From IMG/VR virus record IMGVR_UViG_2660238209_000014: DNA of 4,119 bases. One strand, written 5' to 3'. The position numbers and the translations under genes were made by a program. This DNA is from a virus (taxonomy: Duplodnaviria > Heunggongvirae > Uroviricota > Caudoviricetes). Below the pieces are notes generated by a model, which saw only the letters and a list, made by a program, of their open reading frames with translations, made no database searches and was not told the DNA's origin. This document shows, piece after piece, positions 1 to 4,119 of this stretch; position 1 is the first letter of the stretch; each line of letters starts with the position of its first letter.

Positions 1-314
1 CACATAAAAATTTGTACCTACGGCGGGATCCGGAGGGTTCGCGACTAAGCATTATCGCCACCGTGCCGCCCGGTTGCCCCAGAGGGAAAAATAACACCCC
101 CGCCATGCTGACCGCCGCGCCATTTCGCGGATTGCCACAACCGGAAGCGCACGATCGAATTAAATTTAACGACGACCTATACAGAGAGACTAACTTCGCC
201 GGGCGCTTTCGTGTTATGCCCTGACTTTTCAGGGATATATCCTTTTCAGTAAACTGTCAGTGCCGGATTCTTATCCGTGTCCGGCGCACGCACTCTACCT
301 CACCTGTGAATAAA

Positions 315-689
315 TTAATGATTAATTGATATTTTGTTGTTTGATTCAACTTTCCCATCGGATGTGTGATGCTTTAAATCACAGGAATTAATACTGCTCG
401 CTGTAAAATGATTTTCAAGGGGAGCTATTCGAATCCCTTTCTTTTTCATTAACAAGCCAAATCCTTTATTAATGATGTCCATTAATTCCAGGAAGTATTT
501 TTCATGTAAATCCTGGTTATCAGAGAGCTGCTTCTCTTCGTACAGACCGATAAAGGCACGACGCACGTTACCGGATATAGTATCGATGGTTTCTTTTTCT
601 ACGGTACTCAGGTCAAGAGTCGCCAGTTGAGAGCGAACCACATTCGATGCCATTTCCTGGAATGGTACTGGTAAATCTTTAAATTCCAT
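315..689 (-). CDS. hypothetical protein, second gene of the leftward two-gene cassette (124 aa from ATG at 689; 128 aa if the upstream ATG at 701 is used); no family recognised
   Basis: ORF track 315..701 minus. The ATG at 689-687 is preceded by GAGG with a 6-nt spacer (minus strand TGAGGTTGACGATGG); the ATG at 701 has no Shine-Dalgarno but overlaps the upstream stop (TGATG). Stop TAA at 317-315. The 3' half (about 321-540) is about 34% G+C by hand count, clearly lower than its neighbours. The C-terminal tail is low-complexity (Ser/Asn/His/Lys-rich). Confidence 0.55.
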   Translation of the reverse strand: MEFKDLPVPFQEMASNVVRSQLATLDLSTVEKETIDTISGNVRRAFIGLYEEKQLSDNQDLHEKYFLELMDIINKGFGLLMKKKGIRIAPLENHFTASSINSCDLKHHTSDGKVESNNKISINH

Positions 690-700
690 CGTCAACCTCA

Positions 701-940
701 TCAGTCAGTGTTTCTGGTTAACCAGCGACGCGCGCCAGCTTCAGTTTTAAACGTTTTGCTTCTGGTATACGTCATCGCGGTAAACGTGCCGTCCTGGTTG
801 GGAAACACGCCGTACACCAGAGATTCGTTGTTGCCAAGATCGATAGTATCCATGCTGACCTCATTTCCCCTTAACGCTGGGGTAGCGGAACTAAAAACCT
901 GCTGCGCTGTTATACAAAGTGTTCCCGCCGTCATGTTCAT
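701..940 (-). CDS. small hypothetical protein, first gene of the leftward cassette (79 aa longest form; alternative starts at 934 and 853, the latter giving 50 aa)
   Basis: ORF track 701..940 minus. GAGG lies 3 nt before the ATG at 940 and 9 nt before the ATG at 934. The internal ATG at 853 has the best ribosome-binding site (GAGG, 5-nt spacer). Stop TGA at 703-701 overlaps the next ATG. It sits just downstream (in the transcription direction) of an operator-like palindrome. No family recognised; a competing plus-strand ORF 708..983 has a GTG start and no RBS. Confidence 0.45.
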   Translation of the reverse strand: MNMTAGTLCITAQQVFSSATPALRGNEVSMDTIDLGNNESLVYGVFPNQDGTFTAMTYTRSKTFKTEAGARRWLTRNTD

Positions 941-1034: not shown

Positions 1035-1054
1035 AAGGTAACAAGAGTTACCTT
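1035..1054. promoter_or_regulatory. operator-like palindrome AAGGTAAC-AAGA-GTTACCTT (putative OL-type repressor binding site)
   Basis: Perfect 8-bp inverted arms with a 4-bp spacer. The core GTAAC-N4-GTTAC is the same as the two palindromes between the repressor and cro genes (1801-1814, 1849-1862). This 14-bp core pattern occurs exactly three times in the window, all at regulatory positions. Weaker half-site-like sequences lie nearby (980-993). Confidence 0.55.
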
Positions 1055-1096
1055 TTGGGTTAATACAATGTTGCAAAAGGTACATTTGAGGGCATG

Positions 1097-1120
1097 AAAA
1101 ACCCGCAATGAATGCGGGTT
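1097..1120 (-). terminator. Rho-independent terminator just downstream of the repressor gene (minus-strand orientation)
   Basis: 8-bp GC-rich stem (1100-1107 AACCCGCA pairing with 1113-1120 TGCGGGTT) and a 5-nt loop, followed on the minus-strand RNA by a U-run (A-run 1097-1101 on the plus strand). It begins 5 nt after the repressor stop at 1126-1128. No U-tract follows it on the plus strand, so it looks unidirectional. Confidence 0.65.
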
Positions 1121-1125
1121 CTGAC

Positions 1126-1800
1126 TCAGTCTAAGTATTGATGTATTTGTGAAACTTTACCTTTAATGGTGTAACCACCATTCAGTTCGATGGGTTTGTA
1201 AAGCGGATTCAGTGACAACAGATAGATGTTTGGTCCGTCAATCGCAACTTTTTTTAGTGTTACGTTTGGCGTTCCTTCCAATTGGATTAAGATTATTTTT
1301 CCCACCAGTTCTCTAATGTTACTTGAGCATGGTGTGATCAGCACGGTAGATCCGTCGGGGATGGTTGGGAGGCCGTTAGAGTTTGTCATCGCATCTCCCT
1401 CAACATGCAATAAAAAAGAGTTTTCAGCGGTTTTTGTCATGACATCAACCCAATTCTTAATACCAGGAATCTCGGTTACTGGACAACTCATATCCCAATA
1501 ACCAGCCTGTTCCCACGTTAAAACGGGCAACCGGGCGATGTTGTCACTAATGTAAGGGTACTGATTCAGACGCAGATCATCGGCTTTATCGTGACCGTCC
1601 TTTCCATAAAGAATCCATTCAGGAGATTTGGAAAGCAATTTTGACAGTAGATACAAATTCTCACCGTCAGGTTTTGAAGAGCCATTTTCCCATTTTGTTA
1701 CGGATACACGAGATATGCCGATTGCTTTCGCAACCTGCTGTTGGGTTAATCCAACGTCTTTTCGACGATTCCGAATACGTTCGCTGATAGTGTTTTTCAT
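1126..1800 (-). CDS. cI: CI/C2-type prophage repressor: N-terminal XRE-family HTH plus C-terminal LexA-like (S24) domain, with Ala at the catalytic Ser position
   Basis: ORF track gives 1126..1842 (238 aa). I favour the ATG at 1800 (224 aa): that N-terminus (MKNTISERIRNRRK...) matches the start of P22 C2/434-type repressors as I recall them, and it places both operator palindromes and a consensus TTGACA in the intergenic region. HTH: LTQQQVAKAIGISRVSVTKWENG. Ala-Gly cleavage-site motif (WEQAGYW) present. The S24 motif reads VEGDAMT where LexA, lambda CI, UmuD and P22 C2 have G-D/N-S-M. Lys of the dyad is retained (VTLKKV). Tail LNPLYKPIELNGGYTIKGKV parallels lambda CI [20 protein letters not shown]. 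Confidence 0.9.
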   Translation of the reverse strand: MKNTISERIRNRRKDVGLTQQQVAKAIGISRVSVTKWENGSSKPDGENLYLLSKLLSKSPEWILYGKDGHDKADDLRLNQYPYISDNIARLPVLTWEQAGYWDMSCPVTEIPGIKNWVDVMTKTAENSFLLHVEGDAMTNSNGLPTIPDGSTVLITPCSSNIRELVGKIILIQLEGTPNVTLKKVAIDGPNIYLLSLNPLYKPIELNGGYTIKGKVSQIHQYLD

Positions 1801-1891
1801 GTAACCAATGTTACTACCAAGTGATGTTGCTATGGTTGACATTGTTATGTAACTATTGTTACCCTTCTACTCGAAATAACAGGAGAGTTTT
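1798..1891. promoter_or_regulatory. OR-type divergent operator/promoter region between the repressor and cro genes
   Basis: Two near-identical sites, ATGTAACCAATGTTAC (1799-1814) and ATGTAACTATTGTTAC (1847-1862), each a GTAAC-N4-GTTAC palindrome. Consensus -35 TTGACA at 1836-1841 faces rightward, with a weak -10 candidate TACCCT at 1860-1865 (18-bp spacer) overlapping the second operator. AGGAG at 1881-1885 lies 6 nt before the cro ATG. No Shine-Dalgarno precedes either candidate repressor ATG, so the repressor mRNA may be leaderless as for lambda cI from PRM. The leftward promoter hexamers could not be assigned confidently. Confidence 0.6.
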
Positions 1892-2107
1892 ATGTTCAAA
1901 GATGATGTTCTGCGCTATTTCAAAAAAAAGCGACTAGTAGCTGAGGCTCTTGGAATTTCACATGTGGCTGTTGTGCGGTGGAAAGCAGTTATTCCCAAAC
2001 TTCGCGCAATGGAACTGGATGAAATTACTAACGGTGAATTGAAATACAACCCAGAACTTTACAAGAAGCAGGATAGCACCTCAAACGAAGGAAAGAATGA
2101 TTCATGA
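1892..2107 (+). CDS. cro: Cro-like small HTH regulator (YdaS-like)
   Basis: 71-aa ORF with a good RBS (AGGAG, 6-nt spacer). HTH segment RLVAEALGISHVAVVRWK. Divergent from the repressor gene across the operator region. Its stop TGA (2105-2107) overlaps the next ATG (2104-2106) as ATGA. Confidence 0.8.
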   Translation: MFKDDVLRYFKKKRLVAEALGISHVAVVRWKAVIPKLRAMELDEITNGELKYNPELYKKQDSTSNEGKNDS

Positions 2108-2529
2108 AAATCAAGCATGAACACATCCGCATGGCGATGAATGTCTGGGCGCATCCGGACGGCGAAAAAGTACCGGCTGCGAAAATTACCAAAGCGTATT
2201 TCGAGCTGGGAATGACGTTCCCGGAACTGTATGACGACAGCCATCCGGAAGCCCTGGCCCGTAATACCCAGAAAATTTTCCGTTGGCTGGATAAAGACAC
2301 CCCTGATGCTGTTGAAAAAATGCAGGCTCTGTTACCGGCGATCGAAAAGGCGATGCCGCCTTTGCTGGTGGCCCGTATGCGCAGCCACAGTTCTGAATAT
2401 TACCGTGAGATCGTCGAACGGAGGGATCGGCTGGTGAAGGATGTCGATGATTTTGTTGCGTCAGCGGTTGTTTTGTATGACCAGATGAATCGCGGCGGCC
2501 CGGCAGGGAATGCTGTGGTGATGCACTAA
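2104..2529 (+). CDS. ydaT: YdaT-like protein (CII functional analogue; family formerly annotated as a putative toxin)
   Basis: 141-aa ORF, translationally coupled to cro. The N-terminus MKIKHEHI and the C-terminal ...VVMH end match my recollection of Rac prophage YdaT; its position right after cro is the cII position. Identity is from memory and needs a search to confirm. Confidence 0.75.
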   Translation: MKIKHEHIRMAMNVWAHPDGEKVPAAKITKAYFELGMTFPELYDDSHPEALARNTQKIFRWLDKDTPDAVEKMQALLPAIEKAMPPLLVARMRSHSSEYYREIVERRDRLVKDVDDFVASAVVLYDQMNRGGPAGNAVVMH

Positions 2530-2551: not shown

Positions 2552-3514
2552 ATGAGCAGCAAGCTTCATGGTCTTGTCTGGGAAGGGTGCGCCTTCACCG
2601 GCATGATCTTATCCAGGGTGGCGGTTATGGCCCGTCTTGCAGACTACAGCAATGACGAGGGCGTGTCATGGCCTGCCATTGAAACTATCCGGCGTCAGAT
2701 CGGTGCAAGAAGTGAATCCACAGTGAAATCGGCTATTGCAGAACTGGCGAAAGAGGGCTGGCTGACGAAGGAAGAGCGTAAGGTCGGTGGGCGTAATGTA
2801 AGCAATATCTATCGGCTTAATGTGGAAAAACTCGAAGCAGCTGCTGCGGCGGCGCGTGAGTCATATAAACCGAAAAGAAAAATTAGCCCGGCAAAAAATG
2901 ACCCGTTAACAGTTGACCCGTCAAATATTGACCCCTCAACGGTTGACCCGTCAAATTTTGATGGATCAACTGTTGATAAAAAACTGCCGATTAGGGGGGC
3001 GATGATTGACCCCGATCCGTCAGTATTAAAACCTGATCCGTCAGATAAAAGATCTTCTTGTCCGGACGCTTCGCAACCGGACCCGCAGACGGCTGAACAG
3101 GATTTTTTAACCCGACACCCTGACGCGGTTGTGTTCAGTGCGAAAAAACGCCAGTGGGGAAGTCAGGAAGATTTGGTGTGCGCACAGTGGATCTGGGGAC
3201 GAATCGTGAGTCTTTACGAGCAGGCGGCCAGCGATGATGGCGAGATCACTAGACCGAAAGAACCCAACTGGACAGCATGGGCCAATGACGTTCGCACAAT
3301 GCGGATGCTGGATGGCAGAACTCACAGACAAATTTGTGAAATGTTTGGGCGTCTCCAGCGGGATTCGTTCTGGGTAAAAAACATCATGAGTCCGGCAAAA
3401 CTCCGGGAAAAATGGGATGAACTGGTTATCCGCCTGGGGCGTTCGCCTGCGCAGCGTTGCGTGAATCACATTTCTGAACCGGACACTGAAATTCCGCCGG
3501 GCTTCAGGGGGTAA
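2552..3514 (+). CDS. phage replication initiation protein (lambda O-like role; N-terminal winged-HTH DNA-binding domain, Pro/Asp-rich linker, C-terminal domain)
   Basis: ORF track 2537..3514 (GTG start). I favour the ATG at 2552, preceded by GGGGG with a 4-nt spacer (320 aa). N-terminal segment LSRVAVMARLADYSNDEGVSWPAIETIRRQIGARSESTVKSAIAELAKEGWLT has the pattern of phage replication-initiator HTH domains. The origin iterons lie inside the coding sequence and encode the repetitive linker DPLTVDPSNIDPSTVDPSNFDGSTVD, as lambda ori lies inside O. Confidence 0.85.
   Translation: MSSKLHGLVWEGCAFTGMILSRVAVMARLADYSNDEGVSWPAIETIRRQIGARSESTVKSAIAELAKEGWLTKEERKVGGRNVSNIYRLNVEKLEAAAAAARESYKPKRKISPAKNDPLTVDPSNIDPSTVDPSNFDGSTVDKKLPIRGAMIDPDPSVLKPDPSDKRSSCPDASQPDPQTAEQDFLTRHPDAVVFSAKKRQWGSQEDLVCAQWIWGRIVSLYEQAASDDGEITRPKEPNWTAWANDVRTMRMLDGRTHRQICEMFGRLQRDSFWVKNIMSPAKLREKWDELVIRLGRSPAQRCVNHISEPDTEIPPGFRG
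2899..2988. repeat. replication-origin iterons: tandem ~15-bp repeats, consensus TGACCCGTCAAnnnT (4 good copies, 2 degenerate), followed by an A-rich stretch
   Basis: TGACCC(G/C) begins at 2899, 2914, 2929 and 2944, an exact 15-bp period; degenerate copies begin at 2959 and 2974. Iterons 2 and 4 (and iteron 3 with one mismatch) contain an internal dyad TTGAC-CC-GTCAA. Related repeats GATCCGTCAG occur at 3014-3023 and 3035-3044, with an A/T-rich stretch at 2974-2990. Confidence 0.7.
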
Positions 3515-3554: not shown

Positions 3555-3977
3555 GTGGCAAAAGTTTTTACACAAGAAGAGCAGGAGAAAATTAAAGGGC
3601 AGGTTGTTGAACTCGTACGCCAGAGTGGGCGCGAGACGTTACGACAACTGGAAACTAAAACTGGGGCAACAAGATATCTGATGAGCGTTCTGGCCAGAGA
3701 GCTGGTTGCCAGTGGCGATGTATACAACTCTGGTTACGGGTTATTCCCGTCTGAACAGGCGCGTAAGGACTGGCAAAATGCCCGTAAAAAGCTCTCAAGG
3801 GCAAAGCTGAAGAAACCATCTGCGGTTGATCCGGACCTTATCTGGTCATTACCTGACGGAGAAATACGTCGCTACGACAGGCGTCTGAACATAATCTGTC
3901 TCGAGTGCCGGAAGAGCGAAGTTATGCAGCGCGTACTGGCGTTTTATCAGGGGAATTTTGAGGAGGTGGTGCGGTGA
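3555..3977 (+). CDS. hypothetical protein (140 aa) immediately downstream of the replication initiator; function unknown
   Basis: ORF with GTG start at 3555 preceded by a strong AGGAGG (3545-3550, 4-nt spacer). Basic, Lys/Arg-rich; no family recognised. It sits where lambdoid phages usually carry a helicase loader or helicase gene but is far too small to be a DnaC/P/DnaB-type protein. Confidence 0.6.
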   Translation: MAKVFTQEEQEKIKGQVVELVRQSGRETLRQLETKTGATRYLMSVLARELVASGDVYNSGYGLFPSEQARKDWQNARKKLSRAKLKKPSAVDPDLIWSLPDGEIRRYDRRLNIICLECRKSEVMQRVLAFYQGNFEEVVR

Positions 3978-3987
3978 GTGAATCAAA

Positions 3988-4119
3988 ATGCCAGTGAACC
4001 GCCCCGGGTTTCCTGGAGAGTGTTTTATCTGTGAACTCAGGCTGCCAGATCATCGTTTCCGATGGAAGCATAATAAGCTTTTTCTGCTTCTGCCGGAGGA
4101 GTATGGCCCAGCCTTCCCA
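3988..4119 (+). CDS. 5' end of a further rightward gene (partial; runs off the window)
   Basis: ATG at 3988 opens a frame that stays open to the window end (44 codons: MPVNRPGFPGECFICELRLPDHRFRWKHNKLF...). A GGTGAG SD-like sequence lies about 9 nt upstream, overlapping the stop of the preceding gene. Too short to identify. Confidence 0.3.
   Translation, partial: MPVNRPGFPGECFICELRLPDHRFRWKHNKLFLLLPEEYGPAFP

Follow-up and report, generated by a model that had tools for sequence, protein, structure and literature searches.

Organization of the immunity region

The window, i.e. the whole stretch of 4,119 nucleotides analysed here (IMG/VR record IMGVR_UViG_2660238209_000014), is a lambdoid immunity and early region (Table 1). 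Its minus strand encodes a CI-type repressor, and its plus strand a cro gene and a ydaT-type gene, beyond which lie the genes of an O-like replication initiator and of a DUF977, Ren-like protein. To the left of the repressor gene are found ydfA (DUF1391) and an ORF of unknown function. The repressor thus combines an HTH domain with a divergent cro gene and operators on both sides, as is typical of a lambda-type CI immunity repressor. The candidate operators are perfect GTAAC-N4-GTTAC palindromes, of which the window contains three against 0.09 expected by chance, and they bracket the repressor gene as predicted OL-like and OR-like sites.

Table 1. Position of the main features of the immunity region in the window
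Feature	Position	Strand	Remarks
Operator-like palindrome GTAACAAGAGTTAC	1038..1051		Upstream of the leftward ydfA-dicB-type operon, PL-like position
Intrinsic-terminator-like hairpin and U tract	1096..1123	-	Just past the repressor stop; RNA fold -16.7 kcal/mol, z = -4.0
CI-type repressor ORF, 238 aa as annotated	1842..1126	-	From the ORF list; stop codon 1126-1128
S24 (LexA-like) C-terminal domain, residues 105-238, nucleophile missing	1129..1530	-	Pfam PF00717
Lys197, homologue of the general-base Lys	1252..1254	-	Invariant Lys column (lambda K192, LexA K156, UmuD K97)
G-D-A-M motif, residues 149-152	1387..1398	-	Ala151 (GCG, 1392-1390) in place of the Ser nucleophile
Ala113-Gly114	1501..1506	-	Homologue of the scissile bond of lambda (Ala111-Gly112) and LexA (Ala84-Gly85)
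HTH_3 domain of the repressor	1606..1788	-	Pfam HTH_3, 3.8e-17
Operator-like palindrome GTAACCAATGTTAC	1801..1814		Directly abuts the Met15 ATG; position conserved in Ala and Ser lineages
Operator-like palindrome GTAACTATTGTTAC	1849..1862		In front of cro
Divergent cro (P22_Cro family)	1892..2107	+	Pfam PF14549, 2.9e-16
YdaT-family, CII-like regulator	2104..2529	+	Pfam PF06254; phrog_163, CII-like activator, 3e-47

The true start of the repressor is probably Met15 (ATG at 1800-1798), giving a protein of 224 aa, since residues 1-15 are modelled with a pLDDT below 50, an operator abuts this ATG in every lineage, and the 224-aa form is found in some records. The 14 additional N-terminal residues of the longer annotation (1798-1842, MSTIATSLGSNIGY) overlap the operator palindrome abutting that ATG, and the conservation of 'NIGY' in these residues across distant homologues is best explained by the operator DNA (GGT AAC ATT GGT TAC), not by the protein.

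Several other features of the early region can be noted. The leftward early operon is mosaic (window positions 315-701 compared with positions 20218-21148 of locus L001): in the window, ydfA (701-856) is directly followed by an ORF of 124-128 aa of unknown function (phrog_6937), and in strain 2013C-3181 ydfB and ydfC are inserted between these two genes. Both ends of the window (1-97 and 3995-4119) are without match to 2013C-3181. The O-like gene contains 15-bp-spaced direct repeats of the TTGACCCGTCAA type and two copies of CC(C/T)GATCCGTCAG (2878-2952 and 3011-3044), which resemble the iterons of a replication origin located inside the initiator gene, as is the case for the lambda ori. The DUF977 protein (3555-3977) matches phrog_142, 'Ren-like exclusion protein' (8e-47), and may provide a superinfection-exclusion function within the replication module. 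Rfam returned no match in the window, hence no DicF.

An S24 domain lacking the Ser nucleophile

In the AlphaFold model of the repressor (mean pLDDT 76.7), a five-helix HTH domain is connected by a disordered linker (residues 84-100) to a beta-rich C-terminal domain. The N-terminal domain is about 41% identical to that of P22 C2 (rmsd 0.7 Å). The Peptidase_S24 signature (PF00717) is matched with 61 bits for a cut-off of 23.3, and Foldseek ranks lambda cI (3bdn) highest among the matches of the model, together with the lambda cI C-terminal domain structure 1kca (target TM 0.80, rmsd 2.0 Å), before LexA structures. Signature and predicted fold are thus both those of the S24 domains of lambda cI and LexA.

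The active site of this domain is incomplete. The plus strand at 1387-1398 reads CATCGCATCTCC, whose reverse complement GGAGATGCGATG (GGA GAT GCG ATG) encodes G-D-A-M. The first-pass annotation had placed this Ala at the catalytic Ser of the autocleavage domain, with the Ala-Gly cleavage site and the Lys of the dyad retained, and had named an alignment in which the nucleophile would fall on another residue, such as Thr153 or Ser155, as the result that would speak against it. The motif and its codon were confirmed by direct reading of the strand, and two comparisons uphold the assignment. In a phmmer search of the PDB, hveGDAMt of the repressor was aligned to eveGNSMt of lambda cI. In a MAFFT alignment with the authentic lambda cI, P22 C2, E. 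coli LexA, and UmuD taken from public records, Ala151 falls in the invariant Ser column of the G-x-S-M motif (lambda S149, LexA S119, UmuD S60, and the P22 C2 Ser), so that it is Ala151, and neither Thr153 nor Ser155, that occupies the nucleophile column of these four characterised autoproteases. The same alignment places Lys197 in the column of the general-base Lys, and Q-A113-G114 opposite Q-A-G of lambda, A-A-G of LexA, and Q-C-G of UmuD, that is, at the Ala-Gly or Cys-Gly scissile bond. The repressor therefore lacks the Ser of the Ser-Lys dyad and keeps both its Lys and the cleavage site.

The standard example of a non-cleavable mutant is LexA S119A, which is inactive and was used for PDB entries 1jhh and 1jhc. 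By analogy with LexA S119A and with lambda ind- genetics, the repressor very probably cannot cleave itself, and both RecA*-stimulated and alkaline self-cleavage are predicted to be absent because the nucleophile is missing.

Distribution and evolution of the Ala and Ser alleles

The repressor gene is present in 702 of 5426 complete E. coli genomes (about 13%, or roughly 1 in 8), at 99% identity or more in 679 of the 702. Carriers include EHEC O26 and O111 and one ST131 strain, and the median number of places per carrier genome is 1. A 71-nt probe centred on codon 151 matched 683 complete E. coli genomes: the exact GCG probe was found in 681 of them, the exact TCG probe in none. Codon 151 is also GCG in all 80 IMG/VR loci examined, which represent 20 distinct alleles and, being mostly from isolate genomes, are silent on virion production. 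These exact matches exclude a sequencing error. Ala151 has been fixed in a widespread lineage and is not the private lesion of one decaying prophage.

When the homologues are grouped into 90% protein clusters, the state of the nucleophile is uniform within each cluster, and K-K is kept in all members read. The E. coli/E. albertii cluster (499 members, with the exact window protein on at least 1000 contigs) carries GDAM and QAG. GDAM is also found, with codon GCA, in a 68%-identical Salmonella cluster (20 members), together with QAG in all but one member, which has QVG. By contrast, the E. coli sister cluster (87% identical, 39 members, with the Ser-type repressor WP_024173670) carries GDSM, with codon TCA, and QAG; this Ser-type allele is found in only about 8 of the 5426 complete E. 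coli genomes, such as O178:H19 strain 2012C-4431. Between 44 and 65% identity, Ser is found in every relative except a decayed copy from Arsenophonus nasoniae, in which the motif is fully scrambled (PDDKTDN). The survey of homologues called for by the first-pass annotation thus finds Ala fixed in the window and Salmonella lineages and Ser in the sister lineage and nearly all distant relatives. The single-base change between Ser and Ala that it had envisaged also fits these relatives, with TCG in the Ser-bearing P0006, TCA in the nearest Ser lineage, GCG here, and GCA in Salmonella.

Among 127 full-length representatives of the nearest 50% clusters, 106 have Ser, 9 Ala (4 of them from this clade), 7 Thr, and 5 another residue, i.e. 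Ser is absent in about 17%; among 61 relatives from species-representative genomes, 57 have Ser and 4 do not. On these counts, nucleophile loss is uncommon but recurrent in this family of HTH and S24 repressors. Ala-bearing relatives outside this clade are devoid of the A-G site, whereas this clade keeps it. Independent losses of the nucleophile (to Ala, Thr, Lys, Pro, and others) are seen in P0021, P0041, P0104, P0109, and further representatives, usually with loss of Ala-Gly. No close relative was found in the genomes of isolated phages, the best match being a protein of Pantoea phage AH07 at 43.8% identity. This absence was rejected as evidence of non-inducibility, since the Ser-bearing sister is absent from phages too.

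The C-terminal domain has a dN/dS of 0.053 at a dS of 0.69 between two E. coli Ala lineages, and among the 20 alleles of the main Ala lineage 13 of its polymorphic codons are synonymous-only and 3 nonsynonymous. Both figures point to strong purifying selection on this domain, not relaxed after the Ser/Ala change.

A neighbour-joining tree, for which the nucleophile column was left out of the alignment, groups the window lineage (Ala) with P0002 (Ala) and P0003/P0187 (Ser) in an E. coli clade (100% support). The Salmonella Ala lineage is its sister (99-100%), P0006 (Ser) branches next (83-96%), and Ser outgroups lie beyond. At least two changes are needed on this tree: Ala was either gained independently more than once, or gained once and reverted to Ser. 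With 40% bootstrap for the branching inside the E. coli trichotomy, the tree is equally compatible with both. The palindromes of the OR position (GTAACCAATGTTAC, or GTAACCGATGTTAC in P0003, and GTAACTATTGTTAC) do not differ in position between the Ala lineages and the Ser-bearing L003, P0003, and P0006, except that only the second is kept in the Salmonella lineage. Since they share operators, the Ala and Ser forms should be homoimmune.

These data allow a further, rather doubtful proposal, namely that codon 151 (TCN versus GCN) could be a one-nucleotide evolutionary toggle of SOS inducibility within one homoimmune phage group. On one equally parsimonious path, the ancestor shared by the E. coli and Salmonella lineages would have exchanged Ser for Ala, and the rare E. 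coli sister lineage would have regained Ser. Such a reversion would explain the retention of Ala-Gly and Lys across Ala lineages that are only 68% identical, which is not expected if catalysis has long been irrelevant. This retention leaves room for recent independent losses and for two less likely readings, a toggle and cleavage in trans. If a toggle did exist, the Ala repressor would be trans-dominant and would lock both homoimmune inducible relatives and superinfecting phages in an SOS-proof manner.

The immunity module is found in mosaic prophages with several integration sites and differing replication modules. Prophages at the ompW site (strains 2013C-3181 and S2) contain integrase, excisionase, exonuclease, replication, Q, and lysis genes, and that of 2013C-3181 also has head and tail genes, with IS elements among them. 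Some of the prophages carrying the Ala repressor thus look largely intact from their gene content. The copy at yccA in E2855, on the other hand, is degraded, with a frameshifted integrase gene and IS1203 insertions. Prophage Sp4 of O157 Sakai, which occupies the same yccA site as one carrier, encodes an unrelated short repressor, and published induction data on it are of no use here.

The context of the module bears on the possibility that Ala151 is a degenerative lesion in a decaying prophage, whose repressor would be kept only as long as toxic early genes remain. Clearly degraded carriers such as E2855 are consistent with decay, as are the lack of this immunity type in isolated phages and the sporadic, recurrent loss of Ser among the 50%-cluster and species-representative relatives. 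However, the allele is fixed over about 680 genomes, in several integration sites and with several replication modules, and the same Ala state is found in the Salmonella lineage. Together with the strong purifying selection on the C-terminal domain after the change and the largely intact-looking prophages among the carriers, this makes decay an unlikely explanation.

Function and derepression of the repressor

The product of the gene is probably a functional immunity repressor of the CI type, in which the S24 domain persists as a pseudo-peptidase, i.e. a natural 'ind-' repressor that RecA does not inactivate directly. Its N-terminal HTH domain would bind the three GTAAC-N4-GTTAC operators flanking the divergent cro gene and the leftward early operon. 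The fold similarity to lambda cI and the purifying selection suggest that the C-terminal domain has been kept for dimerisation and cooperative operator binding. In the predicted absence of RecA*-stimulated self-cleavage, the prophage would not be directly coupled to the SOS response. The Ala allele would have been fixed by selection, not by drift, the likely advantage being that the host avoids lethal induction and the expression of toxic DicB-type early genes. A lambda cI ind- allele lowered induction 1000-fold and removed the fitness cost of lysogeny in the mouse gut (PMC4752277), which makes selection of a natural ind- allele plausible.

Beside decay, it is conceivable, if quite improbable, that the repressor is still cut at Ala113-Gly114, but in trans, by a Ser-bearing S24 partner such as a co-resident homoimmune Ser-type repressor, the CI of another prophage, or a protease. 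The cleavage site and Lys would then have been kept for trans-cleavage, and every member read of the two Ala clusters indeed has QAG and KK, apart from a single A-to-V exchange. The operators of the Ser-type sister are identical, so that mixed oligomers on DNA are conceivable, and intermolecular cleavage by the C-terminal domains of LexA and lambda cI is generally known to occur in vitro, as reportedly described by Kim and Little in 1993. Such cleavage is, however, inefficient in vitro, most genomes harbor only one copy of the gene, and the Ser-type allele is rare. Moreover, Ala-Gly and Lys may be kept for structural reasons, and A-G has been lost in the more distant Ala-bearing relatives. Self-cleavage through another nucleophile such as Thr153 or Ser155 is very hard to sustain: a Thr does follow the motif (G-D-A-M-T) and Thr occupies the nucleophile column itself in 7 of the 127 related representatives, but the same Thr follows the motif in lambda cI and P22 C2 (G-N/D-S-M-T) and is therefore ancestral, not compensatory, Ser155 has no conserved counterpart among the characterised S24 proteins, and LexA S119A is, as is generally known, inactive.

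If the repressor is a non-cleavable pseudo-peptidase, derepression would follow a RecA-independent or indirect route. The first-pass annotation had found no LexA box in the window and had left the choice between a domesticated prophage and induction by another means, such as an antirepressor to be sought in the rest of the prophage. The first point holds, since the window contains no CTGT-N8-ACAG sequence even with one mismatch allowed. As for the choice, simple decay is disfavored by a fixed and selected allele, and a search for antirepressors that covered the window and prophage stretches of four genomes, one prophage from end to end, found none. Derepression might come from an antirepressor acting in trans from another prophage, for which there is a precedent in Salmonella (PMC3121763), or from stochastic or stress-driven, SOS-independent switching by Cro, as shown for DicA/DicC of Qin (PMC10448788). 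Both routes are possible by analogy.

The prophage stretches L001, L002, and L014 contain no perfect LexA box, the single match in L002 lying by the host gene sulA. A relaxed scan yielded the LexA-box-like sequences CACTGTAAAAATATCCAGTT and AACTGGATATTTTTACAGTA, at 33323-33342 of L001 and 368-387 of L014, with 15-16 of 20 consensus matches. The former coincides with the beginning of the prophage DNA-methyltransferase gene that is found downstream of Q, and the latter is located within a methyltransferase gene cut by the locus end, L001 and L014 being independent carriers of the Ala repressor. A small ORF between hokD and the DUF968 gene, at the position of rem in Qin, was rejected as a Rem homologue (20-25% identity in a poor alignment) and matches only a PHROG of unknown function.

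Public records name the repressor 'LexA family protein', 'S24 family peptidase', 'RecA-mediated autopeptidase', or 'SOS-response transcriptional repressors (RecA-mediated autopeptidases)', in spite of the missing catalytic Ser and of the very probable inability to self-cleave. Domain annotation alone would thus lead to wrong predictions of the response of this prophage group to SOS-inducing antibiotics. As a natural counterpart of lambda cI ind-, the repressor would also allow testing, in wild strains, of gut selection for SOS-uncoupled lysogeny, a comparison that the Ser-bearing homoimmune sister makes clean. A literature search, including protein accessions, found no paper on this repressor or on a natural Ser-to-Ala CI repressor.

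Comparison with known systems

The repressor shares with lambda cI and P22 C2 an HTH_3 domain, a flexible linker, an S24 domain, the Q-A-G motif, and the catalytic Lys, in an immunity region that likewise has a divergent cro and palindromic operators on both sides. It differs from them by the Ala in place of the Ser nucleophile and by its low identity (26% with lambda cI and 38% with P22 C2), and the CII analogue of its prophage is of the YdaT type. With the CI repressors of Stx phages it has in common the HTH and S24 architecture and a location in mosaic lambdoid prophages of E. coli, but in clades I-VII of these repressors the autocleavage Ser is conserved throughout (PMC8951638).

Another group of temperate elements relies on short, non-cleavable repressors without an S24 domain or an Ala-Gly bond, namely GfoR/GftR of the Gifsy prophages, DicA, and RacR (PMC3121763, PMC10448788). 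Like these antirepressor-controlled proteins, among them Qin DicA (with Rem) and Rac RacR, the repressor studied here is predicted to escape cleavage by RecA, and its neighborhood has ydfA, dicB, and ydaS/ydaT-like genes in common with Qin and Rac. Unlike them, it has the whole S24 domain and the A-G bond, with only the nucleophile lost, and neither a cognate antirepressor nor a LexA box was found in the regions searched.

Finally, the closest functional parallel is provided by the laboratory mutants LexA S119A and lambda cI ind-. The lambda ind-1 mutation affects a residue other than the nucleophile Ser. By analogy, these mutants would share with the repressor the same functional lesion, in a protein whose S24 domain otherwise folds and which still binds DNA. 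In contrast to them, the Ala151 repressor is natural, is fixed in a widespread prophage lineage, and is maintained under purifying selection.
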